From assembly GCF_036588685.1 (NCBI RefSeq), contig NC_086380.1, positions 39,308,001-39,372,000 of the forward strand: DNA of 64,000 bases. Direction: 5' to 3'. The position numbers and the translations under genes were made by a program. Source of the stretch: Mytilus trossulus (Eukaryota). Positions 4,662-64,000 of this stretch are shown in pieces (within the stretch, counting starts at the first letter, position 1; each line of letters opens with the position of its first letter). The notes beneath the pieces were generated by a model, which saw only the letters and a program-made list of their open reading frames with translations, had not been told where the DNA came from and did no database searches.

Positions 4662-4692
4662 ATAAACCTAGCGTTAAAGTAAACTCAAGTCA

Positions 4693-14300: not shown

Positions 14301-15426
14301 AAATGGGGATGCATGTTCGCACCAAGTATGATGGGGGTAAGATCTATAATCATTGTAATCGTGGGTCTTGGCATAACAGATGCTATGCTGCAAGTTTGCG
14401 CTTTAATAAAGGTATTCAGTGGTCACCACAAACCTGGGAAGAGACAACTTCGTCTGTCTCTGGACATTACTATACTACTTTATATAGTAAGAGATTACAA
14501 TATCTGAAAAACAACACAAAAAACAAAAGAAAAGAAGGAAATCAAAAGTAGGCGGTATAAGAGAAAAATAAAATCTGCCAAAGAATCAACAGCTGCTTGT
14601 TCAAAAAAACATTATGGTCCAGAAGCTATTCAGGTTGAGGCAGACATTTCCTCAGAGGAACTAGACAAGAGAAAACAACAGTACCTTAAGAAACATATTG
14701 AAATTACTCATAGTGAAATTGATGATATTGAAATAATTACCCGTTTACAAGGTTCTTGCAAAAGGTGGCGTGACGAAAGAGCAACACGATTAACAGCATC
14801 AAACTTTGGCTTAATTTTTAAAAGAAATCCAAACATTCCTACAACACCATTACTTAACCAATTAAAAAAGTTTTATGGAAACAGTGCAACAAGGCATGGA
14901 TTGAGTGAAGAAACTAATCACAATTAAAAAATACATTCAATATAAATTAAAATAAAATGTTCCTGTAAAAGTAAAAAGAATGGGTTAAGTTATATATAAA
15001 ACACATAAATTTCTAGCTGGAAGTCCGGACGGAAAGGTTACCGAGGAGGAAATAGGAACACCACCCAGTGTTGTGTTAATAGAAATAAAAAATGTTCTGT
15101 ATAGGAAAGACACATATTTTACAGATGCTGTTAAACAAGTTAAAAACTTCTGTTTGGAATTAAAAGAAAAAAAGTTACAAGTTAAAAGATCACATAATTA
15201 TTACTACCAATGCCAAGGCCTTCTCAATGTATGCAACAAACCCTGGATTGATTTAATTGTAAGGACAACGAATCCATATGAACTGCACGTTGAAAGGATT
15301 TTTAAGGAATCAGTTTTTTGGACACATCAAATGCAACCCAAACTCTCTTCATTCTTTTTTAAAGCGATTTTGCCCGAACTATCAGCACCTAGGATTTCAA
15401 AGTATACAGGAATAAGAGAACCTTGA
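11351..15426 (+). mobile_element. Degraded DNA transposon gene: Kolobok-related ('Mutator-like') DDE transposase fused to a YqaJ/lambda-exonuclease PD-(D/E)xK domain, interrupted by a LINE
   Basis: Transposase motifs CDGGWSKRS, NKYCYIC, IGDGDSS, KLECSNH, HIYGDHSRC and TSNLAE. Nuclease motifs W..ER..RLTASNFG, LAGSPDG, IEIK and HNYYYQCQG. Splice acceptor at 11350. Several frameshifts and stops. Confidence 0.85.
11902..13955 (-). mobile_element. 5'-truncated non-LTR retrotransposon (RT plus C-terminal CCHC; RTEX/CR1-like) with an (ATTC)n tail
   Basis: NFRPIVLLS, QFGFRPGRST, FVDFRKAFD, GVKQGEPLSP, LFGDD, YLG and CMCC..EDEYHFVLSC. AATAAA then (attc)3 at the 3' end. TSD ATAAA at 11897-11901 and 13956-13960. 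Confidence 0.9.
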
Positions 15427-17185: not shown

Positions 17186-17468
17186 AGATCGGTACATGGA
17201 GTTTATTTGGAAATACTATATAAAATTGCTGTTTTTATGCTTGGTTTCAGTATCATGAGTCAATCCCTTTCTGACTGTTTTAATTGCGACATGATTATTT
17301 GATAAACATACTTCTATGATATCTATTGGCTTTAACTTTGATATTTCTAAAAGAAACTATGTAGCTTAGAGATGTATGCGTAAAATAAGTTCTCGACATA
17401 AATTGGCTAAAATATCAGATTAGAATTAAGCCTCAAGTTATATAAGCTTTGCATTTCCAATACTTTAA

Positions 17469-17508
17469 ATCATTGAAGAGACATGTATTGTCGAAATGCG
17501 CTTCTGTT
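17469..17508 (+). ncRNA. Degenerate type I hammerhead motif of a second repeat family
   Basis: ca-TTGAAGA-gaca-tgtat-tgtc-GAAA-tgcgct-TC-tg. Stem II is intact; core position C3 and stem III are mutated. Confidence 0.5.
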
Positions 17509-18058
17509 GCAGGAAAATTGGTACTGTTAATGTTATAATAATACTGACGACGAAGAAGCCTAAAGCTTTATAATACACGTACTTACGACGGAGATTTAGC
17601 CTCAAGCTATAATACTTATGATGATGATGATACTTATATATGTCTTAATTGTATATCCAGCGACACATATTACATACTAGTATATATTAAGGATGATGAA
17701 ATAATAATGTTAAATCATATATCTTTTTATACATGCCCAAAACTTAGAGACGCATTTTCATATGCTTAGGTAACAAAAGAGCGTAACCAGTATAAAGACA
17801 AACTTGGCGTTCTACGAGTAAACCGATACCAGCTCTTATTCATGAATGCATCATGCTTGTTCGAGAAGCCGAACAATACAGTCTTAAAGTCATTCGATCG
17901 TTCGATAGTTGAACCCGTATTCGAAGCTAGCCTGTCGCAGTCAATCCCAATGGTATATACATTGTACTAGTACACATTTTTGTTTCACTCGTGTATCACC
18001 TTCACTGGTGATCCTGTCCATGCATGGATCTGCCGCAGAGTTGTCACTTTTATATATA

Positions 18059-18592: not shown

Positions 18593-19578
18593 TGTTCCGG
18601 ACCATATTAGTATTTGGACCATATGTGTATATACGCATATGGTCCGACCGTACGCGTATGGTGGGGTAATTAACTTCTTAACTCTTCATATGGTTTGACC
18701 GTTGCTTAAAAAAGACGCTATTATATAGGTGATTTTATTATTATATTATAATTAAAGGATTAGCTAAATAAAAATTTGAATTTTAACATATTTTTAATTA
18801 CTTGTCGAAACTACATGTATATTAACACTATAAATAAAATTATTCCATTGGTCATTACCGATGGTTATTACCGATTTGTTATTACGCGTGAATAGCAATA
18901 TGTTGACTTAAAAAATTTTTTTTTTTAAATTCTAAATGAACTGTTACACAAGACTAGCGAAGAAGTCATTGGAAAGTAACATAGTTTATTTAAGTTGTCT
19001 TGTGAATATGGTGTATTGCAGTCATGTGACGATATTTGAGACCTAGAGCTTCTTAAAAACACCGTAGACATATCGGAATGAACAAAGACCTCGATATCAC
19101 TATACACAGCTACATAAAGGCTAGCTTTTCACTCGCAAACTAAAGGTGTAAATGAAAAGGATCGTGCACAACCTAGACTTGCAAATGCAAAAAAGATATG
19201 GTACCGTGTGGAAGTAATGTCATCACAAGCCTTCATGTAAGAATGTAATTAGCGATGAAAATTAACTATGGCATGAATATTTAAATTGTACGTAGTATTT
19301 TAATCGTAAAATAATAGATTGTCATGTAACCATCATTGTTTTTTAGTTAAAGTTTTTGTATTCTTAAAACTTTTATAATGTAATTTAAAAAAAAAATATA
19401 CCTAAATGGTCCAAATACCCATATGGTCCAGCCCGTTAATAACCAAACGAGTATTATGCTCATATGGTCCGACCATACGCGTACGGTCGCACCATACGCG
19501 TTTGGTCAGACCATATGAGTATACGCATATGGTCATGACCATACGCGTATGGTCCAAATACTCATATGGTCAGGAACA
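18593..19578. mobile_element. MITE with ~30-bp TIRs, TA TSD and subterminal palindromic repeats
   Basis: tgttccggaccatattagtatttggaccata versus tatggtccaaatactcatatggtcaggaaca. Repeated gaccatacgcgtatggtc palindromes. TA lies on both sides once the Helitron is removed. Confidence 0.85.
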
Positions 19579-23700: not shown

Positions 23701-24043
23701 ATGTAGTAGCAAAAATGTACCTCGGGTCAATTTTATCGGAGAGATTTGGATTTTTATTTTTAAATAATTCCTTTATTAGTGAACTACATGTAGTATGTCA
23801 TAAATTAGAAATACAAAGTATCAAACCATGAAACTGACAAAGGATATTAAAAAGACAAAGAACAGTTACCAAACACTAAATGAAAAAAAATGTATCTTTG
23901 TTTGTCTTTCCATCTTTCTCCTTCTTTTTTTCCTTTATCATTTTCGTTTCAATTTCTGAGTTAGGGTTCAAAGTTTGGTACATTCTGTCTCTATTTTATA
24001 CAAGTAAACTCCTTTTTTTTGAAATTTCAGGTAAGCTGCAAAC

Positions 24044-24745
24044 ATGGCGTTACCAGTAAATAAACATGACAATGACAATTTCTTTAAGACAGAAATTTCC
24101 CATTCCTCGACAGATCAAAATAATGTCAATACTAAATCTAAAGGGCTCCCAACGGAAAAGGAGTCTGAACAGATCAATCACCATAATCAAGATCTTCGAC
24201 AGAAAACGCCAGAAAAATACAAACCGGAAATAGGGTTGGTCCACATGAGGCGAACTCCAACACCATCTGAGGGAACCAGAAAGCCGCCATTGAATGAGCA
24301 ACCAGATGGACATTTCTTCAAATTTATGAACATGCGCAAAATTGCTAAACAAGTTCGAAAAGTGCAAATCAATCGACAGCGCCGATTAGATTATACCGGA
24401 AATGAAACTATAGAACATAAAGTAAGAAAATTTAAGCCGGAAGATATAGAACCGATCATTTACGGATTCCTTAAAGACAATTTAGAATTTTGTACGTACG
24501 ATTCTGAAGAATGTAAACATCTTTCTATGGAACTAAGTGAAGAACTAAAAGATGTTGTTAAAGCTATGAAGTTCCCGCGTTACAAATTCGTCACCATGGT
24601 TACAATAGGACAGAAGAATAAACAATGTGTAAGCATTGGAAGCCGGTCAATTTGGGATAAAGATATGGATACATACGCAAGTGTACATTACTCAAACGAA
24701 TCAATATTTGCAGTTGCAATTGTTTTTGCAACATTTTTTGAATGA
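24044..24745 (+). CDS. Tctex1-domain dynein light chain (TCTEX1D/DYNLT family)
   Basis: Intact 233-aa ORF. The C-terminal Tctex-1 domain reads KFKPEDIE..YDSEECKHLSMELSEELKDVVK..PRYKFVTMVTIGQ..SRSIWD..DTYAS..N.SIFAVAIVFATFFE. Acceptor at 24030. Confidence 0.93.
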   Translation: MALPVNKHDNDNFFKTEISHSSTDQNNVNTKSKGLPTEKESEQINHHNQDLRQKTPEKYKPEIGLVHMRRTPTPSEGTRKPPLNEQPDGHFFKFMNMRKIAKQVRKVQINRQRRLDYTGNETIEHKVRKFKPEDIEPIIYGFLKDNLEFCTYDSEECKHLSMELSEELKDVVKAMKFPRYKFVTMVTIGQKNKQCVSIGSRSIWDKDMDTYASVHYSNESIFAVAIVFATFFE

Positions 24746-25100
24746 TTAGTTATATCATATGTATACATTTATTTAGAGCGTTTCACTATTATATCTTTTT
24801 GTATTGTATGTTTTCTCATATTTTATGCCATCATGTCCTTTGTCAGTTTGCTATATTTTTCTGTTTGAACGGCCGGGTTGAAGTCACTTTAACCGTTCTA
24901 GAGATGTGTCCTTTTACAAACAAAAAAAACTGATGAATATTTTTGTTTCTGTTTCTTTAGTGTGCCTCAACTGAAACTTATACACAATGCTTAATACCAC
25001 AAACTATAGATTAAGTTTGAATTTTGCTCAAGAGTTATTCTTCTTTACAAATAGAAAAAAGGCTAAATTTTCCGTTTCCGTTCTCTAACTTAATATAAAA

Positions 25101-25440
25101 AAGAAGATGTGGTATGATTGCCAATGAGACAAATATCCACAACAGAAGTTTGCATAAACCAAATTTTATGAAACTTATACACAATACTAGATACCACAAA
25201 ATTCAGATCAAGTACTTTTGGTAGGATCACTTTTTCTGTACAAATAAAAAAGAAGATGCGATATGATTGCCAATGAGACAACTATCCACAACAGAAGCTT
25301 GCATAAACCAAATTTTATGAAACTTATACACAATACTAGATACCACAAAATTCAGATCAAGTACTTTTGGTAGGATCACTTTTTCTGTACAAATAAAAAA
25401 GAAGATGCGATATGATTGCCAATGAGACAACTCTCCACAA
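25101..25440 (+). repeat. 149-bp tandem duplication (2.3 units) of a chimeric repeat junction
   Basis: aagaagatg.g.tatgattgccaatgagacaa starts at 25101, 25250 and 25399. The units are nearly identical. Confidence 0.9.
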
Positions 25441-29393: not shown

Positions 29394-29521
29394 TAGCTGC
29401 GGTATCGTAGCTCTTTAGGTCCTTTTGTTATTTTTTGACTTTTTGCGGACCATATAGATCTATGGTCAGCAAAAAGTCAAAAAATAACAAAAGGACCTAA
29501 AGAGCTACGATACCGCAGCTA
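29394..29521. mobile_element. 128-bp fold-back MITE with a 9-bp TSD
   Basis: 61-bp arms with one mismatch and a 6-nt centre. gtcacaata at 29385-29393 and 29522-29530. Termini TAG..CTA. Confidence 0.9.
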
Positions 29522-38764: not shown

Positions 38765-39167
38765 TTAAAAGAGGGACGAAAGATACCAAAGGGACAGTCA
38801 AACTCGTAAATCTAAAACAAACTGACAACGCCATGGCTAAAAATGAAAAAGACAAACAGAAAAACAATAGTACACATGACACAACATAGAAAACTAAAGA
38901 ATAAACAACACGAACCCCACCAAAAACTAGGGGTGATCTCAGGTGCTCCGGAAGGGTAAGCAGATCCTGCTCCACATGCGGCACCCGTCGTGTTGCTTAT
39001 GTGATTACAAATCCGGTAAATAGTCTAATTCGGTAGGTCAAATTCATGAAAGGGAAGGGGATTGTAGTTACGACGTAAGGAACATATCCGATATTATTTG
39101 TGAAACGGTTATTCCATAATGGTCAACCAACTCGTGATGGTGTCCGTAAAATTTACGAAGGGATGAT
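38765..39167 (-). mobile_element. Penelope-like element 3' fragment
   Basis: Nearly identical to 5199-5596. Confidence 0.85.
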
Positions 39168-41549
39168 GTTAACGAAATCTGCAAAGTACTATTTTGTCTA
39201 GGGGAAGATAAATTCAACAGATGGCACGGTTAGCATGTTTTTCCCACTTTGGAACAGCTAGAATAATGTATTTTTTCTTCGTTTAAATGATCAAATTAAA
39301 AAATTTGTCAAACTACGCGTCCGTTCCAGTTTCAATGCGCATACTGCTATACACTATTAATCAATACTTTCACGCTTAATGAACATAAATAAATGAGTTA
39401 TGATTTCTAACAAGACAGCTGTCCTGTAGATGTCAAAAGGTGTTGATGTCAGCAACCATTGATTACAAAAGGTCCTACAAAATCATCAAAACCCATATCA
39501 TACAGAAATCTTTTATTATATGGCCCCGTCATGACAATCCAAAAAGAGAAAACCAACGACATTCTCTGTGCTATAATTTGATATGAAGCAACTAAATGTA
39601 ATCAGTCTTTGGACGGGAGCATAAAGCATGTCGCAAAGTTAAATACATTTGAAAGTTATCAACCCTCTTTATTAGGTGGGATAGTGGTTTAACAGCACAA
39701 CATAACACCAGATATACAAAAACAAACCGTGAAGGACTAGACTCATCTGTTTGGCACAAAACTGCATATGTTTCACCGAGGACTAAAACATCATTCAAAA
39801 CACCACCAACTGATTTAGTATTAGACGTCATAAGCATTCAAAGAAACAAATGACCATTTCGTCGCTGGGCTTCCAAAATGTCGTATATGAATTTTTTTTA
39901 ACTAAAATATACTTTGTATTATTAAGATAAAAACAAACAAAAAAAACCAAAAAAACACAGATGCTACTGAACTTTATTAATAAAGTTATAAAAAGGATTT
40001 ATGAAAAATGTTAGTAAAGATTTTAAGAACTTTTTTCGCGCATTTTCATAAACTAAATTAAATTATTCTAAAAGACAGATTACTGAAACGTAAAGAAACA
40101 ATTATTTGAAAACCCTATACCACAATGCAAATTAGTTTTTGTAAAATAATACTTCACTTTGACGCAGACGACAAATTTAACTTTTTTTTACTTCAGGAAA
40201 ACCAATATTTATGTTACCGAATGGTTCTTATGCAGCAATACTTTTGGATGAGGTAAAACTTATTACAGTTTGGCCATTTTTTTTAGTCTTTATACATTTT
40301 GTAGATCACAGCGAATATGTTAAAATTTAAAATTGATTACCGTGGACATATTCTTTTTTTCAAATTATCGACGAAAGCTAGCATTTGGTCTACGAAGGCA
40401 TTTGTAACCCTATTAACTGTGAGCAATGTACCAAATATAAAAAGCCGCATAAACACAAAAACGCATACTACATTGTACGACTTTGTGTTACCTTATATTT
40501 ACTAACCATAGGAGAGACACTAAAAAAAGAAGCCTTGTATCACTCTATAAAAAAATATATACGTGGTAAAATTGCCAATGAGACTACTCTCCTGAAAAGA
40601 ACAAGATGAAACACAAATTAACAACTATAGGTCAGTATACGCTCTTCAACAATGAGCAAAGCCCAAACCAAAGTCAGCTATAAAAGGACTTAAAATGTCA
40701 AATGATAAACAATGCACACGGGAAAACAAATTATATAGTACAGCAATAAACGGCTACCACAGAAAATATAGTCTCCTGACTTGTTACAGGCACAAACAGA
40801 AGTTGACAGGTTAAACATGTTAGCGGGTACCCAATTTTTCCCCAACTTCAGAAAGATGTTTAACAGTACAACCACTGAAGCAACATAACAACAAACTATA
40901 AAATCAGTCGAAAAAGGCTTAACTTTTCATACGAGCATAAATAGAAATACACCTTACATACACACATAGTGGACATGAGCTTTACTTTTTCACCCAACAA
41001 CAAACAGACGCGAAGTTAAGATCTTAGAGTTATCGCAGTAACTGACAGCTAGTTCAAAGTCACTAACAATGAATACAAAAATCTTGCATCTAAGACTACT
41101 AGTATATTTATTGTCAACCAACAGCAAATAAAGTATCAGTAATGGATACGTTGAAACAGAAATTAATAATACACAGCAGACATATAGGTATACTGACCGA
41201 CTTGAGAAACGCAACACTAGATTATTGTATTGTTATTGTTGAATGAATGTGTCACCGTCAAAAGCGATGACTGCCTGTTACAAACGCCAAAATGATTGTC
41301 AGAATGGTCAACAAATTCTGTCTCACATGATTTTGGTTCTGTTTAACACCTTCTGATTTTGCATTTGTTCAACCCATTAATTGGTTTTGGCAAGTATGCG
41401 ATTGGAATTTAAGGGGATTAAAAATATTTCTTCAGTCGAATTTAAGGCGATGCAGTTGATGGGAAACATTTATGGAATGCATCTGTACGCAATGGGATTC
41501 GGCAATTTGATAAGCAGTTGACGTTGCGGCCGAAAACATGTCTGGCAAT

Positions 41550-41790
41550 ATTTATCAAAGGTACCAGGTTTATATAATTTAGTACGCCAGACGCGCGTTT
41601 CGTTTACATAAGACTCATCAGTGACGCTCATATCAAAATATTTATAAAGCCAAACAGGTTCAAAGTTGAAGAGCATTGAGGATCCAAAATTTCCCAAAAA
41701 TTGTGCCAAATACGGCTAAGGGAATCTTTGCCTGGGATAAGAAAATCCTTAGTTTTTTTTTCGATAATTCAAAGTTTTGTAAACCGGAAT
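41550..41790 (-). mobile_element. Retrozyme-like repeat
   Basis: The reverse complement matches 7515-7737. Confidence 0.8.
41584..41627 (-). ncRNA. Minimal type I hammerhead ribozyme
   Basis: gcguca-CUGAUGA-gucu-uaugu-aaac-GAAA-cgcgcG-UC-uggcgu. The core and GUC site are intact, stem III is a short palindrome, and stem II has one mismatch. Confidence 0.85.
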
Positions 41791-42593
41791 GACGTTACGT
41801 TACCAAATTATGTTGGCGTTTCATTGTCACTACACGTTGGTCTGTTCATTGATGGCCAGCAACAAATCTTGTCTACTTGTATCGTTGTCGGAAGAACAGT
41901 AAGACGAGTTTTTGAAGTCATACAGTATGGTTGCATTCTTAAGGGCTGATTCAGTTTTTTTTAATTTCTCAGTATTGACAATATTGATATACAACATTTT
42001 TTAACTGATTTCAGTGTGGCAAAGGATTGAAAAAACTGTTTCACAAAGCAGAAAAACTGAAACAATCTTTCATGGGTCCAAAATTCGCTTTAAAAATTCG
42101 TGCGACTTCAAAAATTCGGTATGTTCAATAACCAATGGTTATTCAGATTTTGATTGTTTTGCAAAGAGAAAGAAGTGTTGTAAGCATGAAAAGCATTTGT
42201 AAGAGAATAAATTGAAACACCATTTGGTAAAACAAATCAACACAATGAGTGTTGCGTTTTTAAAGTCGTTCAGTATAACATACATTTTTCAATCCCGATG
42301 AATAACATAGAACTATTGTCATCCTCGACCTTTCTTATACTTGTCACTGGGCATTAGGCTAAACACCAATTTATTGAACATTATGGCTAAAATATAAAAA
42401 TTGAATACTTGGAAATGGTACTGTTAGTGTATTTAAATTTTATCTGTCTTGTATTATAAAATTATCAAATACTTTTTGTAACAGTTAGTCCATTCTCGGT
42501 TGTGAGTGTCGATTGCCAATTATTTTTTAAAATCTTTATTTAAAAAAAATGACGAATACATAAATGACCTGATTACAATTTCATTTTACTCAG

Positions 42594-43706
42594 AACCCTG
42601 ACGATGAGCAACACAACTCTATGCTACAGGAACGGATCACCAATTTAAAACAGTTTTGCAAATATCATCCCAATTTATATCCCAACAGAAAGCTTGTACA
42701 CCAACCTCTTGTTGACGAAATATTGCGTGTAAAATGCTGTTGGATAGAAAAAGTCGGTTCATCATTCATGAAAAGTTTCTTTAGGCATTTCCAAAATTAT
42801 ACGTTAGCAAGAAAAACAAAACTTAACCACCAAACAAAGCATGGAAGTACTGACCAACACATAAATCGACAACGACAAAAGGGAGATAACTATACAAGGA
42901 TAATGATAGTGCGAGATCCTTTCGAAAGACTTTTATCTGGTTACATAGATAAGTTTTTCTTGCCAAGTCCAATATTTTGGAAAAAGAGAGGAAGGTATAT
43001 TATAAAACATTTTAGACCCAATTCGTCAGTAAAAGAACAATCATGTGGACACAATGTTACGTTCTTGGAGTTTATTCAGTACGTCGTCCATGTTACAACT
43101 CGAGAAAAAAACATGGAGGAACCACACTTTACGCCAATGCACACACACTGTAAACCTTGTTTGATCCATTATGATTTCGTATGGAAACTCGAGACAATAA
43201 AATGGGATTTTAAACATACCATCAAACATCTTCCGAATAGAAAAGAACTCCATATCGATGGTTTTGATTTCCGAATGGACAAAGAACATTTATCATCCGA
43301 TGTTATCTCTAGAATTGCGTTTATGTTCGAACGGAGATATGACATTGAAAAGTGTATAACATTTTATGAAGCTTGTCAAAGAACTTGGCGAGGATTTCAA
43401 ATGAGAGGGGTAATTGATAAAAACCATAAATTCCCTCTTATTTCACTTCCGGAAGATTTCAATGTTACGATGTACAAAGACCTTGTTATGAAAGCATCAA
43501 ATTCGATAATATCCAAGTCTAAAGTCAAAAGTCAGAAAAAAGAAGTTTTTCTAGAGTCGTACAGTCTTCTACCAGTTAATCTTTTAGAACAGCTAGAAGG
43601 AGCAGTTACTAAGATAGATAGTGAAATGTTCAACTATAGAAAAAGTCTTAGGCTACTGTTGCAGGAATACAAAAGAAATAATTTTAGTTATTTTGACTTT
43701 TTATAG
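42594..43706 (+). CDS. Carbohydrate sulfotransferase (Sulfotransfer_2; CHST8-14/CHST11-like), main coding exon
   Basis: 5'-PSB CWIEKVGSSFMK, 3'-PB IVRDPFERLLSGYIDKF, TFLEFIQY and HFTPM..CKPCLIHYDFVWKLET. Phase-0 acceptor ttttactcag at 42593. Confidence 0.92.
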   Translation, partial: NPDDEQHNSMLQERITNLKQFCKYHPNLYPNRKLVHQPLVDEILRVKCCWIEKVGSSFMKSFFRHFQNYTLARKTKLNHQTKHGSTDQHINRQRQKGDNYTRIMIVRDPFERLLSGYIDKFFLPSPIFWKKRGRYIIKHFRPNSSVKEQSCGHNVTFLEFIQYVVHVTTREKNMEEPHFTPMHTHCKPCLIHYDFVWKLETIKWDFKHTIKHLPNRKELHIDGFDFRMDKEHLSSDVISRIAFMFERRYDIEKCITFYEACQRTWRGFQMRGVIDKNHKFPLISLPEDFNVTMYKDLVMKASNSIISKSKVKSQKKEVFLESYSLLPVNLLEQLEGAVTKIDSEMFNYRKSLRLLLQEYKRNNFSYFDFL

Positions 43707-48200: not shown

Positions 48201-48629
48201 AGTGGTTTCAAGAATAAAAAGAAAACAAATAGAGTGAACCCACCCTACTATAACTAATATAAGATTTTTAAAAAATCTTTCATTAAGATAAAAAGTATCA
48301 CAAATGAAATATATTTTTGTATTTCATTGGCCCATTAAAACATGTAAATAAATAGAGATAGACAGATCATTTGCAACTACATTTGTACTTGCGGTAAAAA
48401 TTACTTTAGTCCCAAGTTTTATTAAATTATACTTACAATAACCCCGGTCCATTGGACCACCGAGGAAAGTGGATTTTCCTTTAAAAAAAAGAAAAAAATA
48501 AAGTTACAAAAATAAAGAAAAATAAAATATTATATTTGCACCACAAACATCTACAACAGGTTCTTTCCTGACAATAGACTAGATAAAGCAGTTATTATTT
48601 ACCATTATTATTTAACTATGATGACATAT

Positions 48630-49310
48630 AAAATTGAAAATGGAACAGCGGAATGTGTCAAAGAGACAACAACCCGACCAAATAAAAAAACAACAGCAGA
48701 AGGTCACTAACAGGTCTTCAATGTAGCGAGAAATTCCCGCACCCGGAGGTGTCCTTCAGCTGGGACCCTAAACACATATATACTAGTTCAGTGATAATGA
48801 ACGCCATACTAATTTCCAAATTGTACTTAAAATAATACAAGACTAACAAAGGTCAGAGGCTCCTAACTTGGGACAGGCGCAAAAATGCGGCGGGGTTAAA
48901 CATGTTTGTGAGATCTCAACCCTTCCCCTGTACCTCTAACCAATGTGGAAAAGTAAACGCATAACAATACGCACATGAAAATTCAGTTCATGAGAAGTCC
49001 GAGTCTGATTTCAGAAGATGTAACCAAAGAAAATAAACAAAATGACAATAATACATAAATAACAACAGACTACTAGCAGTTAACTGACATGCCAGCTCCA
49101 GACTTCAATTAAACTGACTGAAAGATTATGATTTCTTCATATGAACATTAGGCACAATCCTTCCCGTTAGGGGTTTAGTATCATACCATCATAACATATA
49201 TGAGAAGAACATAACCCGTGTCATGCCAACAACTGTTTTTAGAATAAATGTGTTTAGTTCCGATGCAAAGACCTTATTAGTGACTCAATATTAACGCCAA
49301 AATATGCAAT
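48630..49310 (-). repeat. Long copy of the interspersed repeat seen at 4693-4942
   Basis: Direct sequence match in inverted orientation. Confidence 0.8.
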
Positions 49311-51107
49311 CTTTTGTTAGTTTCTGACGATTTACTTAAGTAAAGAATGTATACTATAAGAATACTTGTAAATATATAAATGATATAGGGGGTAATACTT
49401 GTATGTGGGATAACAAAAGTCAAATATTCCAGAACTTGAAACAACTTCAATATAGTTATCAAGTTTGGGCCACTCTCTCTTTTTTCAGATTACACGATCA
49501 TATAATCGAAAAACACGTGCATTTAATTACCTTAACATACTGTAAGTTTCTTGAGATCTCTTAATGTGCAAAAAAAAATATGTTTAATTATACTATACGC
49601 AAGACAAATTGGATGTTCTTCAATCATATAATCTATTGATTTTAAAATAAAACAAAGAGCAACAATAAAATACAATTTTATAAACTGACTAAGCAATAAT
49701 TTGCTTTTAGCTTTATGTCCAGTGGCAGATATTTCTTGCAACACAATACTTAACGATAAATCGAAATGCCGTTTCTACTGAGTCGATCGTATTAAATAAC
49801 AAGAGCGTGCATTTAGACTTCCAGTGGGGTATTTTGGATAGGGTATGACATTATCCCTTGTAACAGGTCACCTATGGATCCTCAACAGATTTGATGGTAT
49901 CGTTTTATAACGTTCAACTTGTGATTGACATTCATCTTTAACGACCCATTTATGGGTCATTGCTGCGTATTTACACATCTTGCGCAATGATTATGTATAA
50001 CTATATAAAAAAAAAGAAGACGTGGTATGATTGCAAATGAGACAACTCTCCACAAGAGACCAAAATGACACAGAAACTAACAACTATAGGTTACCGTACG
50101 GCCTTCAACAATGATCAAAGTTAAGCTATAAAAGGCCCGAAATAACAATGTAAAACATTTCAAACGAGAAAACTAACGGCCTTATTTGTGTTCAAAAATA
50201 AAACAAAAAACAAATATGGAACAGATAAACAAACAACAACCACCGAATTACAGGCTCCTGGCTTGAGACAACCACATACAAAAAGAATCCGGTGGATGGA
50301 AACATGTTAGCGGGATCCCAACCCTCCCCTATATGGGACAGTGGTATTACAGTACATGCATAACATAAAGAACGAACTATAAACATCAGTTGGAAAAGGC
50401 TTAACGCATCAGAATGATAACAATACAAGTGGACATGGATTTTTGTCTATCTTTACGTGCAGTATGGTTTTACTGTCAGATTCGAGAAATTCACGTACGA
50501 CAATACACAATTCGAATGCATCCGAGTACAGGTACACAATTATTTCTATTTGTTAAAAAATCATTTGCGTTTAAGGACATCCGATACTTATATAACAAAA
50601 ATTTTCAAACAAGGAAACATACATTTTTTAATATAGCATTACAAGATTAAGCTCTCAGCGTCATTATTATTTCCATATAGTAATCCAATACGGAATACGG
50701 GATTTTGAGTGTCCAAGCATTGTCAGTGTACACTATAATTTAGTAATAGAGTAAGTGACATGTTGTTCTTAAAATATCTTCAGATTCACATTTGATATAT
50801 AACCATTTTCAATACAAACGTACACTGCATATATCTTATAAGTAAATAATTGATTTCCAAATTGAAATAAACAAACTTACTGATAACTGTATTCAAACAT
50901 AACCCAAGATTACAAGCCAATAGGAACCAAACAAACATATTCATTTTGCACTACTTTGAAACAACAGTAAAGAATAAAACACTCATGCCGATTTTTGTAT
51001 TGATTTTGTTTCGTATGTCTTTAGTCTGTAACATTTGGAGACAGATACATTACGTTTTTATCAAAAACATTAAATATTTCCAAGAAAAGTTAAAAAGAAA
51101 AATCAAT

Positions 51108-51181: not shown

Positions 51182-52454
51182 ATTAGTAAATCACAACAAT
51201 ATGAATTGCATATAAATTGTTTATGATTTTTTCAAATAAATGGAAAGGTATCATGGTTTACGTGAAATATGATCAGGAATTTTTATGCTGTAATTAAAAC
51301 TATGGAGTTCTAATGTTGAATTGAGAATAATTAGCGGCATTGAACAATAAATAAAACAGACGTTAAATTGTTTTATTCATAATTAGACAAATATGAGGTT
51401 CAACATATTATATAACAAATATGCAATTGGTGTTATTTAATATGTCTTAAGTTAGTACACATGCATTGATCTAATCCAATGCTAAACAAGAAGTGAATTA
51501 TATGACAAGCCGTTTTCATATCCATTCTAACTCAAAGATCTATAATGAACTTTGTAAGATATCTCATATAGTTTGTAAAGTATGATTTTCTTCATGAGAT
51601 ATATAATAAACTTTACATGTATATTGTGACTTATATAGTTAATAAGATATCTCGCATAATTTGCTTTATAGTATATCTCATATAATTTTCTTTACACGAT
51701 ATATATAAATCGTATGAGATATCTTTAAATCATATGAGATATCTTTATGAACTATGTGAGATAGCTTACAAACTATATAGTTTATAAGATATCTTCTCTT
51801 ATGGTTGTGGCCTGTTAGCTATTTCTTACATGGAGTGGTGTATCTCGTATCACACAACACGAAGTACATCATTAATTCTTGGCCCCTTGCTTTCTATGTT
51901 TAATTCCTCAATTTCAAGCAGACAGCTCTTTCAGTTGTGGTGTTTTGTACTGCAAAAATCAACTCATCTTTAATGGCATATAAGAAAGAACTTGGATTAG
52001 AAGACGCAAATTTGCGTACAAAGTCACAAGCTTGGTGGTGTTAGTGAGTTTTAACCACCATTTGCTGCATAACACTGATATACATTTGTACGTTTCCCAT
52101 CACAAGTTAAATAGTTAGGAATTATATACTGCCATCAAAGCTAATGCGGTCGTTATGTTCTGAACATGGTCTGTGCATTTAAGGATCGGAAATAATTAGT
52201 CTCGTTCGATATATCGAGGTTTTTTATTTAAAGGTTAGAATGGTCTTTTGTAATTTAAGTCCTGAATGTTTTTAACTTTTAGAGATGTTTAGGCCTTACA
52301 CATTGAGTTGAATTCTAGTGTCGATGATCAGTTTTAAATAAGACATACAGATAAACAGTAAGGTATATTGATAAATATCTATCAGATCCTTAAAAGTATT
52401 TAACTGAGTAATCAAATCTTAAATGTTCGACATATTAGGAAATACTCTAATTTG

Positions 52455-52932
52455 TTATCAAAGGTACCATGATTATGATTTAATACGCCAGACGCACGTT
52501 TCATCTAAATAAGACTCAGATCGAATTAATTATTTTGGGGCCAAACAAGTACAAAGTTGAAGAGCAAAGAGAACCCTAGTTTCAAAATAGTTGTTCCAAA
52601 TACGTCTAAGGTTATCGATGACTTGGAATAAGAAAATCCTTAGTATTTCGAAACAGTCATACTTTTTTTTTTATTATTGAAAAAGGAAATGACCACATAA
52701 TTGATATTCATGTCAACACCGATGTGCTGACTACTGGGTTGGTGATACCGTCGGAGACGAAACGTCCATAAGGAGTGACATCGCCAAGTGGTGTGAATAG
52801 ATATCAAAGGTACCAGGATTGTAATTTAATACACCAGACTCATCAGTGACGCTCAGATCAAAAAAATTATCAAACCAAACAAGTAAAAAGTTTAAGAGCA
52901 TTGAGGACCCATATTTCCAAAATGTTGTGCCA
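52455..52932 (-). mobile_element. Retrozyme-like tandem repeat (1.4 units, 346-bp spacing) with two deleted hammerheads
   Basis: tatcaaaggtacc at 52456 and 52802. Hammerhead remnants at 52485-52518 and 52831-52852. Confidence 0.8.
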
Positions 52933-52959
52933 AAATTTCAGACAATTCAAATTGTTTAA

Positions 52960-53850
52960 TGACCCGTACTCTTCTTAGTATTTATCAACGACTTACCAGA
53001 AACAGTTCAAAATTCAACTGTCAAACTATTCGCTGACGACTGCCTCACATTCCACTATACAAAGAATTCCCAGGATGAAGCCAAACTACAACAAGACCTT
53101 TCAGCACTAGAAGACTGGGAAACCAAATGGCTGATGAAATTCCACCCAGAAAAATGCACCGTCATCCTCATTAGCACCAGTAGTAAATACTACGAATTAC
53201 ATGGCCACACTGTCGAAACTGTACCAACCAGCAAATATCTAGGAGTAAATTTCAGTCAGGACCTACAATGGAAACATCATGTTGACGTTACTGCCAAACA
53301 CAGCATCCAAATCCATCGGATTCCTTAGGCGTAACCTTTGAGAATGCAACAAGAATCTTTCTGGTCAGACAAACACTAGATTATGCTAAACCGTTTAGAA
53401 CAAGTGCAAAGGAGGTCCGCCAGGTTTGTAACAAACAACTACACTGTTACAACACCTGGATGTGTGAAAACTTTGAACAAGACACTAGCTAAAACGAAGT
53501 AACCATCGACTCGTCATACTTTACAAGATCCAGCATTAGCTAGTAGACATTGATGCCAGTTCCATCTTACGTCCAAACAATTGGCGCACTAGAAACAAAC
53601 AACGCCTATATCAACCACCAGCAAACCAGAGAGTATTTAATAACTCATACTTTCCGCGGACTATACAAGAGTGAAAACACCTTCCAACAGCTACAACTGA
53701 AGCTGAAGGGGTTTCAGAGTGCACTAGCCAACTAAAATGCGACCCAGACAAAAACACCATAGACAGCAGCCAAGTATACATAGTTTTAAATTGTAAATAT
53801 TCGGAACGTTTTATTTGTAAATTATTAGAGGAGAATTGCTGTCACATTCT
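52960..53850 (+). pseudogene. Degraded CR1/L2-like LINE 3' half
   Basis: FLVFINDLP, KLFADDC, LQQDLSALEDWETKWLMKFHPEKC, KYLGV and LEQVQRRSARFV. Confidence 0.9.
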
Positions 53851-54380: not shown

Positions 54381-56062
54381 ATTTATCATTATTTGTGATA
54401 TCGTCTTGATCAAATTCTTCATGCTCATATAAGAATGAATTTAATTTAATCGAATTTCTACCTATTCCTGCAGAATTTAGTAGACTCAGTTCTTCCTGTC
54501 AAAGTTGACACACACATTTTTGTTTTAGGATTCGCGGTACTCTCAGATGAGCACACTACTAGTAGTCATTTATTTAGTTTGGATTTTGGTGCAGAAATAT
54601 CATAAAAAAACAAACATTTTAAGCTATGATGTTATTGCTTCGTTTTCTTTTGTATTTTCAATCTTTTTCATATTTATATAATTATTTAATACATATAGCG
54701 TGCCGGTATTTATATTTATGTATTGTTTGTGTAATAACATATTTATCATTATTTGTGATATCGTCTTGATCAAATTCTTCATTCTCATTAAAGAATGAAT
54801 TTAACTTAATCGAATTTCTACCTATTCCTGCAGAATTTAGTAGACTCTCCAAATTGTCGTTTTGGTGATGTAGCAAAAAATTCTCGCTTCCCGTTATATT
54901 GTTCCATATACATTGATTTCATACATAAACTGAATATTAAGTTATGTTTCAGTTCTTCCTGTCGAAGTTGACACACACATTTTTGTTTTAGGATTAGCGG
55001 TACTCTTAGATGAGCACAATAGTCATTTATTTAGTTTGGACTTTGGTTCAGAAATATATCATAAAAACAAATATTTTAAGCTAGAATATTATTGCTTCGT
55101 TAAACAACAGGAACCCAAGCATTTCACACTGTATACATTACAAACATTCATGTTTATTTTTGTATTTTTTTCTTTTCTTTTGTATTTTCCATCTTTTTCA
55201 TATTTATATAATTATTTAATACATATAGCGTGCCGGTATTTATATTTATGTATTATTTGTGTAATAACATATTTATCATTGTTTGTGACATCATCTTGAT
55301 CAAATTAGTCATGCTACTTTAAAAATGAATTTAATTTAATCGAATTTCTACCTATTCCTGCAGAATTAAGTAGACTCTCCAAACTGTCGTTTTGGTGATG
55401 TAGCAACAAATTCTCGCTTCCCGTTATAATGTTCCATATACACTGATTTCAGAAATAAACTAAATTAAGTTATGTTTCAGTTCTTCCTGTTCAAGTTGAC
55501 ACACACATTTTTGTTTAAGGATTCGCGGTACTCTCATATGAGCACAATAGTCATTTATTTAGTTTGGACTTTAATGCAGAAATATATCATAAAAACAAAC
55601 ATTTTAAGCTATGATATTATTGCTACGTTAAACAACAGGAACCCAAGCATTTCACACTGTATACATTACACAAATTCATGTTTATTTTTGTAATTATTTC
55701 TTCTCTTTCGTAATTTCCATATTTTTCATATTCAAATAATTATTTAATCACATAAGCAACACGACGGGTGCCGCATATGGAGCAGGATCTGCTTACCCTT
55801 CCGGAGCATCTGAGATCACCCCTAGTTTTTGGTGGGGTTCGTGTTGTTTATTCTTTAGTTTTCTATGTTGTGTCATGTGTACTATTGTTTTTCTGTTTGT
55901 CTTTTTCATTTTTAGCCATGGCGTTGTCAGTTTGTTTTAGATTTACGAGTTTGACTGTCCCTTTGGTATCTTTGGTCCCTCTTTTAATGCATATAGCGTG
56001 CCGGTATTTATATTTATGTATTGTTCAAAAGGTGTATTATTTGTGTAATAGCATATTTATCA
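54381..56062 (+). repeat. Local tandem repeat, ~530-bp unit, three copies
   Basis: atttatcatt.tttgtga.atc.tcttgatcaaatt at 54381, 54741 and 55271. The first unit is shortened by deletions and the third carries a PLE insert. Confidence 0.9.
55749..55987 (+). mobile_element. Penelope-like element 3' UTR fragment inserted in a tandem repeat unit
   Basis: Matches the reverse complement of 38765-39003. tttaat lies on both sides. Confidence 0.85.
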
Positions 56063-57742: not shown

Positions 57743-59339
57743 ATAGATATAGGAAGATGTGGTGTGAGTGCCAATCAAACAACTCTCCATCCAAATAACA
57801 ATTTATTAAAGTAAACCATTATAGGTCAGTGTACAGCATTTAACACGCAGCCTTGTCTCACACCGAACAAAAAAGCTATTAAGGCACCAAAATTACTAGT
57901 GTAAAACCATTCAAACGGGAAAACCAACGGTCTAATCTATTCAAAAAAGGAGAAAAAGAAACACATATAAATTACGTAAACAATCGACAACTACTGTACA
58001 CCAGATTCCTGTCTTAGGACAGGTGCAAACATTTGCAGCCGGATTTAACGTTTTAATGGTACCAAATCTTCTCCCTTTTTCTGAAACAACAGCATAATAT
58101 CACAACATAGAAAAACATACGATAAAATATCAATTGGAAGGCTTAACTCAATCATAATCCCCATAAATTGGGCATTAATAAACAGAACTTCGATGGAAAT
58201 TTCAAACACATCAAAATGAATAGATACATGTAACAACTGTAATATTCTTGATTTGGTACAGGCATTTTCTTATGTAGTGAATTTACTCCTATTCTGACCC
58301 AGTTTATCATCTTTATTTAAAGTTATCACATCGTTAGCATACCTTTGGAAAACGAAGTTTGTGAGTGATTTACTAAATGTTTTTATCCGTCTGTCATGGT
58401 CACTGTGAAATAAGAAGTTGTGAGAAAATTGTCAATGAGACAACTACAAATGTACATGTATCCACGAGTTAAAATAAAGTCGATGTAAACGTACGGCATT
58501 TAATGGCTATAAAAGGCCCAAACATGACAAATATGAAACTATTCAATTAAGAAAAATTACGGTTTAGGTATGCGTTTTGATGTCAAGATCGGAATAAACT
58601 GCAAATAAAAGAGAAACGATTTACTTTTAGTGCGCATATCTTGAATAGTAAATAATGTAAATTAAAGAAGTGGGTCACATCAACCTTCTTAAATTATGGT
58701 TAAAAATTGCATTAAACAAAATCTGATCACATATAAGTCATAAAAGAATGATATCTCTTAGATCGCAGTATTACGCACTTTCCGTTTTGAGATTTCATCT
58801 GAACTTCTTCACATACTTTACTGTGTCCTTTCACATGTTTGGATCGAGCGTCATATTTTTGTTGTTGACAATAATCTGACATACAAATTTTAAGGCTGAT
58901 GTATATGATGACTTGATTATCGTATATCAAGCATATACACATATGCTCAATATGTTATGCGTCTTGATCTTACAGTGCTGTTTTCAACTTTTCTTCTGTT
59001 ATTTATCTGAAAAGTGTTTATCATCTTGCGTGTAAGATGTACATTACATCCATCATGTCCATATCAGATCAGATTTTTTTTTGTAAAAGTAACGAATTTG
59101 AAAAGGTTTCCTTATTTTAATAACACATTATTTATCAGTTTAATGCAATTTTGAAGGGGCCGATTTTTTGTAACACTGTACAAATTGTAAATTTGATATT
59201 TTTTGGAGTAAAACAAATACAAAACCACACAGTCATCCTAGTTTGCAATAAACTGTTTGTCAAATGCACAGTTTTCGTATGTACCACTAAGCGGTAAAAC
59301 GGCACTTAGACTTGTATTTTAATAACAGTCAAAACGTAC

Positions 59340-59555
59340 CACTTGAGTCTCTGTTGATAATTTCAATCCGAATGATGTTGTAAATGGTTCCAAGATCAAC
59401 ACTCCAAAATGGTGATAAAATTTTGTCTGTATGTGAAAACGTGGTTGTCAAGCCATCAACAGCTTTATATGCAGAATAGCTGTCCAGTGTTGTGTATTGT
59501 CGAGCTAGCTTTCCTAGCGCCACATTTTCTGGATTTTTGTTAGGTAAAATAACAT
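59340..59555 (-). CDS. PAN-EGF-F-type lectin gene, exon 3 (F-type lectin N-terminal half)
   Basis: ENVALGKLARQ..AYKAVDG..FSHT..PFWSVDLG..IEIINR. Acceptor ttttcag and donor gtacgt, phase 1 to 1. Confidence 0.9.
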
Positions 59556-61159
59556 CTGAAAATACAATTGAATCTATGATACATTTGTGGATACTTGCTA
59601 CAACTGAAAAAAATGAAATTGTAAGAAATCTATTAAAACGGACTATATGTTTATAATATATACAATTTGATTACAAATAAATTTAAAAAGTGCTCATCGC
59701 AAATATTGTAAATCAATCACCGTGTAAAACATTCTTCCCTGGCTCATGTTTAACATTTAGAACATAACAATTACACTAGAAATGTGCGTTTTGTATATCC
59801 CTAAAATACCCTATATCACAACTTTATAAATCAGTTCCAGAGTACACGTGAAACTTTCAAACTATCTCTAAGGCAGAAGTGTCGAGAATAGATTAAAATA
59901 GAACTGTAAACATGTCAGAATGTTTTCTAGTATAGAAGTGAAAGAAGCACAGATCTAAATTATTTTAAATTGGAGCACCTTGCTGGGTACAAGGTCGAAC
60001 AGTTCAAATTGGTGGATAAGTCAAGAACTGTTTACCTTGTATGGTCATTGCTAAACCATAAGATCAGATAACTAATACTGAAAGAAAAAGTAGAAAAACG
60101 TAGAGCCAACAGGTTCATCATGCGCCTTGTGATTCAGTCATATCGTGACGATCATGACTTGTTTCAATCGTTTAACATACAGATTAACTACATAAATAAG
60201 GCCGAAAGTTTGCTCGTTTGAATTGTTTAACATTTGTCATTTCAGGGCCTTTCATAGCTGACTATGTTGTATATTGCTTTGCGCATTGTTGATTGCCATA
60301 CGGTGACCTATTTGTGTTAATTTCTGTGTCATTTGGTCTCTTGTGAAGAGTTGTCTCATTGGCAATCATACCACATCTTTTTATACTATTATAGTGTCGA
60401 AGTAGGTAACTCGTAAAACATAATGTCAATGATTAGAAATAAGAAGATGTGGTATGAGTGCCAATAAGTCAACTCTTTATCCAAGTCACAATGTGTGAAA
60501 CGTAATACTCATAGATTAAAGTTCGGCACGAAACATTGGCTCGAACAGAACAACAGTTGAGTGTAGACATAACTACGTGTGCAATGTATATGTTTCATAC
60601 ATAGTTTTGAATTATTATTGTGTAAATGATGCTATACGCTAATAACAATCGTCCATACAATTGATAAAATAATGTGATTTAAATTAGATAAGATAAAAGG
60701 AAAGGAAAGAATTATAACTGTATTGAACAACCAACTTATTCAATTTTTTATGTTTGTTGTTTTGGCGAACTTACTAAACATTTGTATAGTGGGAATAAGT
60801 TTTAATACGGGATTTTCGATTCTTTGCTCGTTTTGATATTTTCAAATAATTTTGATTCGACACGGTATATCTGTTGCGTTATTGTAGTCCCTTATAGCCT
60901 AAGTCAGAGGACATTTTATAACTCTAACTTTTAGAAAAAAAACCACTGAAGATATTTTAAAAATGTGTTTTAACCTTCTGATACAAAATGTATGTTGAAA
61001 GTGAAACTGCATTTAGGTCATCCAAACGTTTCTGATGGATGCAAACAAAAGGACGTATTCAATTTATTAAATATTATTTTCAAAGATGCACTATGGGGAA
61101 ATTAGCATATTTAGATGAACTATCAATACTGCTATATATGTAAATGGTTTGATACGTAC

Positions 61160-61253: not shown

Positions 61254-62168
61254 CTGAAATTTAAATACAATTTCAAAAAAGGTAAGACGATTGTCAACTT
61301 ATTATCCGATTGATATGGGTTTGAGAATGTTAAATATATTATCCACTTTTATGACAAGGTTAATATACAATTGAAATTGGATCTCTGATATATTAAACTG
61401 GTATGACTTATTACTAATTGATTGAAAAATGAAACAAATACTTGTTTTACATGCAAATTTTTAATAAAAAAAGAGTAAACTAGATATATATTATGTTCAT
61501 TTTAACATTGAATTATAATGTGATTCATGTGATTGGTATCCATCAATATAGAACTAGACATACATCGAATTAATTACACTACAAACCAATAAAAGTCTGA
61601 ACTGGCCTATATATGTACTCCTTTGTACTGATTTTACCAGTCTGAATTCGTCTAAATTTTACTTGACATTACGTATACTCAACCCCAGTCTTAACCATAC
61701 TCGACTCTACTGATTAGTATGTAACCCATATCTTTGCCATTGAATATAATCTAAACTATTAATCGAACAGTCGTGAAAAAATTCTCGACCTACTTTTTTA
61801 GTCGAAAACATACATAACATTTATAAAAAATGGATGAATAAAATTGTCTTAAGATAAGTTGTAAAATATTACGTTATACCTCATGCATGAGGCGTTAAAG
61901 TAGTGTTAACGTTTGACGCGTAAGTTAAACTGTCTCGAAATCGCCGACATTAATATTTCAATGTATTTACAATGTATGATAAGTTTTATACACAACCACT
62001 GGTTTAATGCCAATGCATGTAGATTTTTTCTTCCTGAGGATATCACTTGCCCAGTAGTCAGTACCTCTGTACTGACATGATTTATCATTGATATGTTACA
62101 AAATTAAAGTTTAAATGCGGTTTTACAGTGAACTGCATTTTGCCTGATATCCTTTTTTTTTTATTCGA

Positions 62169-62212
62169 ACGTCACTGATGAGTCGTTTGTTGACGAAACG
62201 CGCATCTGGCGT
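62169..62212 (+). ncRNA. Minimal type I hammerhead motif within a diverged retrozyme-like repeat (~62020-62250)
   Basis: acguca-CUGAUGA-guc-guuuguu-gac-GAAA-cgcgca-UC-uggcgu. The core is intact; stem III has a C-A mismatch. Confidence 0.75.
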
Positions 62213-62651
62213 ACACAATTTCAATCCTGGTGTTTACGATGAGTTTATTCAATACCCCTAGTAAATAAATCTTATTTTATTTTACGACAACCTTGGTTGC
62301 TAAAGATATGCAACACACATCTTTTTTTTATTTACAGCATCTGATAAAATAATCTTGGAAAAAAAAGAGTGCATATTAAGAAGCATATCACTTATAAGTT
62401 AAAAACGCTATTTATTTATTGAAACAAGTCAGGAAAATAGTGTTTCTGTTGTGTCGTTGTTTTCCTCTTTTATTTGATGTGTTTCCCTCAGTTGTAGTTT
62501 GTAACCTGGATTTGATTTTTTTTCTCAATCAATTTATAAATTTCGAACAGTGGTATACTATTGTTGCATTTATTTATTGTACATGTCGTGACAAAATGAT
62601 TTTTGAAAGTTTGTTTTTGCATTCAATTAAATTAATCTAACGTAAACTTAC

Positions 62652-62993
62652 CCCTCTGTAATGTTGAATCTCAATGTAGATATAACCTTTGTCATGTTGA
62701 AAGTAAACTTCCGAAAGAGTCTCTGGCGTCATATTAAGTTCGCATGTAAGATGGGCCATGTTATAGTTGTATGAGTGGCATAGTGGTCGTTGGATACATT
62801 TTGATAAACATCCTCTTGGTGTGGTTTGATCAAATGAACAATAGGTGAATCCATGTAATTTTACATCTCTTTTATCGGGATTAATCGTAAAGATTTCGGT
62901 TTTACACTGCTCAGAAGATACTTTTAGTATTATAAGAAGTAGGAATAGTAAGTGTATAATGCAGATCAGCTTTAACGAAATATTAAGATGCAT
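62652..62993 (-). CDS. PAN-EGF-F-type lectin gene, exon 1 (signal peptide plus PAN/Apple domain)
   Basis: Hydrophobic leader, then CLSKCIQRPLCHSYNYN..CELN. Donor gtaagt, phase 0. Confidence 0.9.
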
Positions 62994-64000
62994 TTTCTGC
63001 AATAGCGATTGTTATTTTATCCTGCAACTTCCGAAAATATTTGAACCTTTTTAGGTCAAAATTACCCTTCATATGTTAGTCCATTGAAATCACGTTTTAC
63101 ACGCAGTGAAAAATATAAATCGTTGCTTTAAGGGTGTACGGATAACTAAATGTATGAAAAATATTATACTAGTAAACAAAAATGCAACTATTATGTAACA
63201 TTATCCTCAACAGTTAAAAAAGCACACCATCTTTCATAACGTCTGTTGTTAAAAAGTTTCGGAATTTTCTTTACTAGTAACTTTAAATCTACATCGTTGC
63301 AGATAATACGAAAATAATATTAGTTAACCAATGCAAAATTTAAGGTTATGCTTCAAATTAACTACTGTTTAGTTTTTTTTTGGAGACAAAACCCAATAAA
63401 ATTCCGTAATATATAGGAAATTATTGTGCTTTATTTGTGTTGCTGAGCATATATATCAATCAAAACATAAAAGTAACATATAACATGATATTACATATTA
63501 TATTATAGAAATGGGTTAGTATCAATAATCTGTCAGATGAAAGTTATTTAAACCAATACAAAGTTGATTGTTTATTTGATATCATATTGACAAAAGTGAG
63601 AAATACCAAGAATTAAATACGATCAAGCTGAACTCTTGGAAAAGAATATATGTTATGATAGTTATGTGTTATACTTTTTGATTGGTTATTCAGTAGACAA
63701 TATGGATCAGATAAATAAGGATGGTACACAAGCAAATGATGTGTTTTTACGGCTGACACATTGTGACATATTCAATACGACAAATTTTGTATGATCGCTT
63801 TTACATATATAGATAGGTTGAACTTCCTGCTCAGTATATTCAACCAAATTTCTTTTTAATAATGTATTCTTTATTTGAAATAAATATAATAGTATAACAT
63901 ATTTTATATGAATAATAGATAATGTATCAAGTCTTATAAGGATTAGTATACTACAATTTACATACTGTGCAAAAGATATACAACGATTTAACAGACAACC

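Follow-up and report, generated by a model that had tools for sequence, protein, structure and literature searches.

We analysed a 64,000-nucleotide stretch of the Mytilus trossulus genome (NCBI RefSeq assembly GCF_036588685.1, contig NC_086380.1, positions 39,308,001 to 39,372,000; hereafter the window), which carries dispersed hammerhead-ribozyme repeats and fragments of a Penelope-like element (PLE). The repeats are non-long-terminal-repeat (non-LTR) retrozymes of the kind published for Mytilus, with units of 350-365 bp, and by its sequence features the PLE family is a ribozyme-less Naiad as defined in the accessible text of PMC8557442. The two share a hairpin beside a fixed 3' end, and we consider it likely that the Naiad protein binds this hairpin and starts reverse transcription there on retrozyme RNA that is probably circular. 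A sequence-only reading of the window had suggested its PLE family as the mobilising partner; our comparisons support this proposal in a refined form, in which the link lies in the hairpin and not in the hammerhead, since the window's PLE is a Naiad without a hammerhead.

The window samples three homologous retrozyme families, F1 (at 41584, 7655 and 52.5 kb), F2 (62169) and F3 (17469), with units of 349-370 bp. Intact tandem arrays were located outside the window, where units are spaced by 352-361 bp (F1), 359-370 bp (F2) and 349-360 bp (F3). Searches of the 1.3-Gb genome with the three kinds of window locus returned 5,085, 3,281 and 1,318 candidates, and the exact core pattern of the three families matches 16,264 times (reversed control, 0). 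Across these families and a fourth hammerhead repeat, F4 (see below), the hammerhead alignment (13 distinct rows) is paired in 97.4% of cells, with 4 of 12 pairs changed on both sides; each of the three stems contains such changes. In intact copies, helix III is 2 bp long, ends in a tetraloop and includes one covarying pair, which sets them apart from the minimal PLE-type hammerhead, where this helix is lacking; the best array copies reach 33 bits with Rfam Hammerhead_1, below its gathering score of 34. Folding energy was discarded as hammerhead evidence, none of seven folds being better than shuffles (z -1.2 to +0.6). The retrozyme identification made from the sequence alone therefore holds on array spacing, on base composition (37.7% GC in one F1 unit) and on the covarying fold, in agreement with the description in PMC7229834.

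To place the insertion ends, we surveyed 864 kb, comprising the window and four 200-kb blocks picked irrespective of the repeat, and dropped hits under 50 bits. Among the 100 insertions found (one per 8.6 kb), 73 have their 3' end inside a 13-14-nt interval just before a hairpin of ~60 nt, and 3 have their 5' end there; the intervals were set after an earlier look at insertion ends. By family, the fixed 3' ends number 40 of 49 (F1), 21 of 29 (F2) and 12 of 22 (F3) rows, at least 3 of the F3 rows being in fact F4 hits. The commonest end lies 5 nt ahead of the motif CCACTGGG (mode -5), and loose read ends in public runs accumulate at +40 to +43 with mixed AT-rich continuations. F1-F3 ends are mostly without (TA)n runs. 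Systematic target-site duplications were not found among the survey insertions, which gave one 17-bp match; a duplication of about 21 bp occurs at a chimeric locus (L131), and the others are 8 nt or shorter. We also dropped the idea that the 32-47 nt past the cleavage site are a PLE "tail", which is optional and lies between two start sites.

The hairpin directly after the fixed end spans about 60 nt common to F1, F2 and F3, its predicted folding scores z -3.7 to -5.0, and its first 14 bases occur 15,440 times in the genome (control, 0). It is homologous to the 5' end of Naiad-1, the window's PLE family: monomer nucleotides 45-115 are 86% (F1), 81% (F2) and 86% (F3) identical to it, and the predicted fold, a bulged stem-loop, has the same dot-bracket in F1, F3 and Naiad-1 (z -3.5 to -5.0). 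The end offset is common as well. Naiad-1 ends 4-5 nt before CCACTGGG, with 19 of 36 survey hits reaching the 3' end and 16 of these 19 on one base; there are 97 exact occurrences of the junction between Naiad-1 3' end and hairpin, and each of the 26 starts outside satellites (from 30 loci) lies directly after the element's own 3' end, that is, after a partial upstream copy. In two chimeras a Naiad-1 3' end stands at the retrozyme start site (L131:3539-4086 and L155:1510-1938), and at L131 a 47-nt Naiad end lies exactly at the retrozyme junction.

Paired changes keep the predicted hairpin fold. In an alignment of 16 distinct rows, 95.7% of cells are paired and three pairs have changes on both sides. 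A third family, Naiad-3, about 58% identical to Naiad-1 and therefore separate from it, has a homologous hairpin in which the basal stem is changed yet paired, with three compensatory changes (by eye) and an extra stem-loop; Naiad-1 is the closest to the retrozyme hairpin among the three Naiad families seen. The hairpin is not a universal Naiad motif, as its sequence is absent from the selenoprotein family Naiad-2 within 2 mismatches and the junction fold there is non-significant (z -1.1). Nor did it match a known RNA family in Rfam scans of five array loci, and pairing with the ribozyme core as an anti-ribozyme strand was rejected because F3 lacks the complementarity and covariation in the apical stem is local. 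Separately, a 78-bp tandem array (L318-L321, G000:C5 near 60.42 Mb) consists solely of the start site and hairpin of Naiad-1 and has neither a hammerhead nor an open reading frame (ORF), and one locus (L302) has the hairpin joined directly to a Naiad 3' end.

Naiad-1 is a young family: the genome has 43,423 candidates, and the longest open frames reach 1000 aa. The 1000-aa frame carries, N-terminal to the reverse transcriptase, a GIY-YIG endonuclease (EN; EN motif at aa 99-151), to which the Pfam match is weak (E 0.039, below the cut-off), and contains CCHH (H..H at 163-184), CxC (DCTC at 430), DKA (ADKA at 557) and YIDD (844) motifs; it stops after the thumb, with no C-terminal EN. The unit is about 3,370 bp long and is preceded by a partial copy of about 30 bp to more than 1.5 kb. 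The hammerhead core pattern was not found inside the element in six long loci. Its flanks are AT-rich and mostly not (TA)n, and no 30-40-bp tail was seen; a (TA)n target preference and such a tail are described as frequent, not universal, in Naiads (PMC8557442).

The insertions also constrain the template. If copying began at +41 of a linear monomer already cut, only 41 nt would be available. Since 37 of 47 F1 tails carry on past the cleavage site and match the hammerhead with at most 7 edits, and 14 of 73 fixed-end insertions are longer than 356 nt, the template was continuous over the cleavage site, as a circle or an uncut multimer. Mussel retrozymes are reported to self-cleave (one copy at about 0.1/min in vitro), to be ligated by the host and to accumulate as circles (PMC7229834). 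A single raw-read run yielded 6,068 F1 reads among 8.7 million records, about 5:1 to one strand over the body, and 509 reads span the main end-to-start joint, which arrays also produce; the reads show many differences from the assembly, and no read is assignable to the window.

We propose the following course of events. Tandem arrays would be transcribed (family reads were seen), hammerheads would release monomers, and a host ligase would circularise them, as published for mussel retrozymes. The Naiad protein would then likely bind the hairpin in trans, nick AT-rich DNA and prime inside the RNA, immediately 5' of the hairpin; internal priming and the cutting of AT-rich DNA are both published for the anole PLE (PMC11167929). 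Copying backwards through the cleavage junction, likely round the circle, and stopping variably, the enzyme would leave insertions of one to several laps whose 3' ends are fixed and whose 5' ends vary; the end pattern is observed, and the variable stop is how we would account for it.

The same helper and start site could instead act on an uncut multimeric transcript, with circles as a by-product or store, an explanation that we regard as rather unlikely. Mussel retrozyme RNA is reported to be circular in its large majority (PMC7229834), and differences at recurrent sites are rarer within insertions (28%) than between loci (47%). Unit divergence is 2.9% within an insertion against 6.4% between loci, the within-insertion value being the smaller in 15 of 15 short insertions, drawn from loci retrieved earlier. 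Such low divergence fits a circular template, and it would also fit homogeneous source arrays, which would likewise yield similar units; one such array (L142) diverges by 0.1% within, and in another locus (L043) unit variants alternate.

Several observations weigh against a Naiad-driven copying of circles. The homogeneous arrays blur the distinction between circle and multimer, the closest unit at another locus is often as near as the neighbouring unit, and RNA that has not been processed is the main substrate for the anole PLE (PMC11167929). In the raw-read run, there is no pile-up of read ends at the cleavage site, and the Naiad-1 5' body has a depth of at most 15 with no clear strand bias. 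Hairpin covariation comes from 4 lineages, with pair-type counts no better than shuffles (109/500 and 207/500). Moreover, 27 of 100 insertions end outside the fixed interval, and insertion lengths are modestly unlike those of Naiad-1 (medians 191 and 216; Mann-Whitney p 0.03, Kolmogorov-Smirnov p 0.01). Only a sample of PLEs was surveyed, namely 30 GIY-YIG loci and 16 longer regions, so a closer helper is possible, and the putative binding, cleavage and transposition are argued from sequence comparison.

The hairpin could act as an inherited promoter, or as DNA targeted by the Naiad endonuclease, and not as RNA that signals to the reverse transcriptase (RT). It makes up most of the Naiad 5' untranslated region (UTR), many of its unpaired bases are invariant, and the 47-nt Naiad end at the L131 junction is as targeting of junction DNA would give. 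We nevertheless find this improbable: the paired changes preserve a single-strand fold, a promoter would leave unexplained why 3' ends are fixed just upstream in unrelated flanks, and no reads start at the junction, which in a random-fragment library is a weak test.

Whether the hammerhead could itself direct insertion can be judged from F4, a 548-bp tandem repeat (L211:912-1459, G000:C2 near 28.37 Mb; also L202, L213, L218, L219 and survey blocks). Its hammerhead is intact and has 28 of 30 bases in common with that of F3; otherwise F4 has nothing in common with F1-F3 or Naiads. Eight of its 15 closed ends lie at +373-375, and four of these eight continue into (AT)n (the count omits one open end and one duplicate). 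Thus, the hammerhead does not set the insertion end, as a repeat with nearly the same hammerhead but without the hairpin ends elsewhere, and ribozyme and hairpin are likely separable modules. F4 frequently has (TA)n flanks and often adjoins a C-terminal-EN PLE that likewise ends in (TA)n; it had no significant match to the one C-terminal-EN PLE or the three Naiads with which it was compared. Another repeat near F4 (L211:2169-4842 and 7868-8317) has a hammerhead-like core followed by a transfer RNA-like stretch (by eye) between (TA)n runs.

A canonical hammerhead-bearing PLE with a C-terminal endonuclease (Neptune-like) might mobilise F1-F3, as proposed for Xenopus retrozymes. Such PLEs are present in the genome, and vertebrate retrozymes have been tied to pseudo-long terminal repeats (pLTRs; bioRxiv 10.64898/2026.07.22.740005). 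On inspection, however, the F1-F3 matches in 16 longer regions that cover these PLE families look like separate retrozyme or F4 insertions and not parts of the PLEs, and (TA)n runs terminate the sampled C-terminal-EN PLE but mostly not F1-F3, which makes this helper a very doubtful candidate. One fixed end, tandem arrays and the lack of a target-site duplication (mostly the case here) are compatible with rolling-circle DNA elements, and long arrays, which later DNA-level tandem expansion probably explains, show higher-order repeats (L016), as would suit a plain satellite with one fixed end; a rolling-circle derivative or satellite with an incidental hammerhead is nonetheless largely refuted and highly improbable, given hammerhead covariation over four families, a hairpin and end offset common with an RT-encoding element, and terminal sequences that are unlike between families.

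Returning to Naiad as the probable helper of F1-F3, a wider proposal can be put forward tentatively, as somewhat less than an even chance: that animal retrozymes are modular RNA parasites in which circle formation falls to the hammerhead and the choice of reverse transcriptase to a separate signal that can be exchanged. F1-F3 would carry the start hairpin of ribozyme-less Naiads, and their copying round the circle would begin at an internal site of fixed position; F4, with nearly the same hammerhead and another body, another end and (TA)n targets, would use another PLE; and Naiads themselves may use circular or tandem RNA. If so, the hairpin alone could make any small RNA circle a template for genome insertion.

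The window has six hammerhead remnants at five loci, drawn from all three families, as follows.

41547 to 41789, minus strand: F1 retrozyme copy that starts, through 5' truncation, near monomer position 160 and ends 41 nt beyond the predicted cleavage site.
41584 to 41627, minus strand: type I hammerhead whose core is intact and whose stem II has a C.A mismatch; cleavage is predicted between 41590 and 41589.
7487 to 7737, plus strand: F1 copy, 5'-truncated, ending at +40, with a broken-core (CUGAUAG) hammerhead at 7655-7704.
52448 to 52934, minus strand: F1 insertion of about 1.3 units with internal deletions in both hammerheads.
52731 to 52791, minus strand: degraded Naiad-type hairpin within the 1.3-unit F1 insertion, as read from the sequence.
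61972 to 62117, plus strand: F2 fragment with a degraded Naiad-type hairpin at about 61996-62057.
62156 to 62249, plus strand: F2 copy ending at +47; its hammerhead (62169-62212) has an intact core, and stem III contains a C.A mismatch.
17437 to 17536, plus strand: F3 copy, 5'-truncated, ending at +32; hammerhead with U for C3 and stems I and III broken.

The two F2 pieces are probably one insertion with a deletion. At 41584(-), where the sequence-only reading had placed a type I core with a 6-bp stem I and a palindromic stem III, every core base is present, in the order 6-bp stem I, CUGAUGA, stem II (3 of 4 pairs), GAAA, 2-bp palindromic stem III with tetraloop, and GUC. The covariance-model search suggested as a check gave Hammerhead_1 (RF00163) matches at 41584 (30.6 bits, E 0.0014) and 7655 (21.5 bits), both under the gathering score of 34; the Rfam scan of the window listed no match for 62169(+). 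The core claimed at 62169 is intact but belongs to a separate subfamily, F2, in which stem III is CGCGCA (1 of 2 pairs) and not CGCGCG. The damage reported at 7655(+) was borne out and includes a 6-nt loop insertion next to the altered core, as were the two damaged remnants at 52485-52852(-), and the repeat at 17469(+), taken for a second family, is indeed related and distinct but is the third. Two matches to the strict core pattern lie in the window, whereas 200 mononucleotide shuffles gave 0.06 on average and never more than 1.

Overall, the hammerheads of the sequence-only reading are real, while their family number, tandem status and local abundance needed correction. Tandem arrays exist at family level, but within the window more than one unit occurs only at 52448-52934. 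The five related loci in 64 kb are likewise present but reflect ordinary density, as about 7 would be expected per 64 kb at the survey average, which rules out a special retrozyme cluster. No ORF of at least 100 aa crosses the five loci. Every copy is truncated and damaged, each with a broken stem or core and none lying between two intact ribozymes, so that the window copies, which are ordinary decayed insertions, would make poor test constructs. A working ribozyme in a host transcript is unsupported at 41584, given the stem II mismatch and a strand opposite to that of the adjoining sulfotransferase frame; its hammerhead fold lies 9.7 kcal/mol above the minimum free energy, against 3.5 for an intact copy. 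An identical 22-nt deletion between two GTC triplets, with loss of stems II and III, was seen at 52831-52852(-) and, unlinked, in survey block C5 near 182157.

Naiad-1 is represented in the window by three 5'-truncated copies.

5200 to 5850, minus strand: Naiad-1 3' end with the last 116 codons and the 3' UTR, 97.9% identical to a full-length copy; without the hairpin because of its 5' truncation.
38767 to 39173, minus strand: Naiad-1 3' end, 5'-truncated.
55745 to 55985, plus strand: Naiad-1 3' end, 5'-truncated.

The second family, selenoprotein Naiad-2, is present as 3' UTR at 48628-49314(-) and 4686-4938(+) and also at locus L123; its frame has 1008 codons with four in-frame TGA, and a weak Rfam SECIS_1 hit (49138-49202; 23.7 bits, E 4) within the 3' UTR fits the selenoprotein Naiads of PMC8557442. 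Elsewhere, host-gene-like frames with domain hits (sulfotransferase, Tctex-1, F5/8 type C and PAN) lie at 42573-43706(+), 24035-24745(+), 59329-59670(-) and 62637-63011(-). A broken Mutator-like transposase region (11447-15426(+), Pfam hit at 11447-11824) contains a fragment of RT like that of long interspersed nuclear elements (12316-13967(-)), and a second RT fragment (52963-53328(+)) adjoins the 52.5-kb retrozyme. A very common dispersed repeat family with shared ends (D3, D4, D8, D9, D12) occurs at 25097-25433, 40551, 50010, 57747, 58408 and 60437, and inverted repeats at 29394-29521, 60341-60484 and 19454-19524 gave microRNA-model hits far under gathering scores.

The retrozyme family is already known, and the hairpin and the link to a Naiad helper are new to the literature searched: we found no paper naming either, in a search that left subscription journals and Repbase outside its scope. 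Metazoan retrozymes have been described as having no conserved motif from which to deduce a helper element (PMC7761336). Because the hairpin is defined (60 nt), the start site is localised to a few bases and young Naiad frames of full length are available, the question of the helper becomes directly testable; if our interpretation is right, this would be the first cis-signal for Naiad reverse transcription and would support the view that hammerheads parasitise PLEs.

The M. trossulus repeats resemble the non-LTR retrozymes of Mytilus galloprovincialis (PMC7229834) in their type I hammerhead, repeats of about 350-390 bp, low GC, thousands of copies and related ribozyme families. Compared by description, that report has two families and about 5,000 motifs, whereas we find three hairpin-sharing families and 16,264 exact cores, and its accessible text names no fixed end, hairpin or specific helper. 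The window's PLE is like the Naiads of PMC8557442 in its N-terminal GIY-YIG, CxC and DKA motifs, partial tandem arrangement and body without a hammerhead core, and a Naiad-3 protein passage agrees by eye with Naiad_Mgal; the accessible part of that paper describes neither a 5' hairpin nor a non-autonomous ribozyme-bearing partner. The mechanism suggested here parallels the anole Poseidon PLE (PMC11167929), in which reverse transcription starts inside the RNA, sequence 3' of the start is needed, AT-rich DNA is cut and genomic ends agree with the start sites. In Poseidon, however, hammerhead and binding region belong to an autonomous C-terminal-EN element, whereas here the signal is common, in trans, with a non-coding element. 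Vertebrate retrozymes (bioRxiv 10.64898/2026.07.22.740005) are likewise non-autonomous partners of PLEs recognised by sequence homology; as far as the accessible text goes, that homology involves the pLTRs of Xenopus, and the sampling included no mollusc. In M. trossulus, the homology instead covers only about 70 nt and lies at the 5' start of a Naiad that has no ribozyme and from which the hammerhead is not derived.
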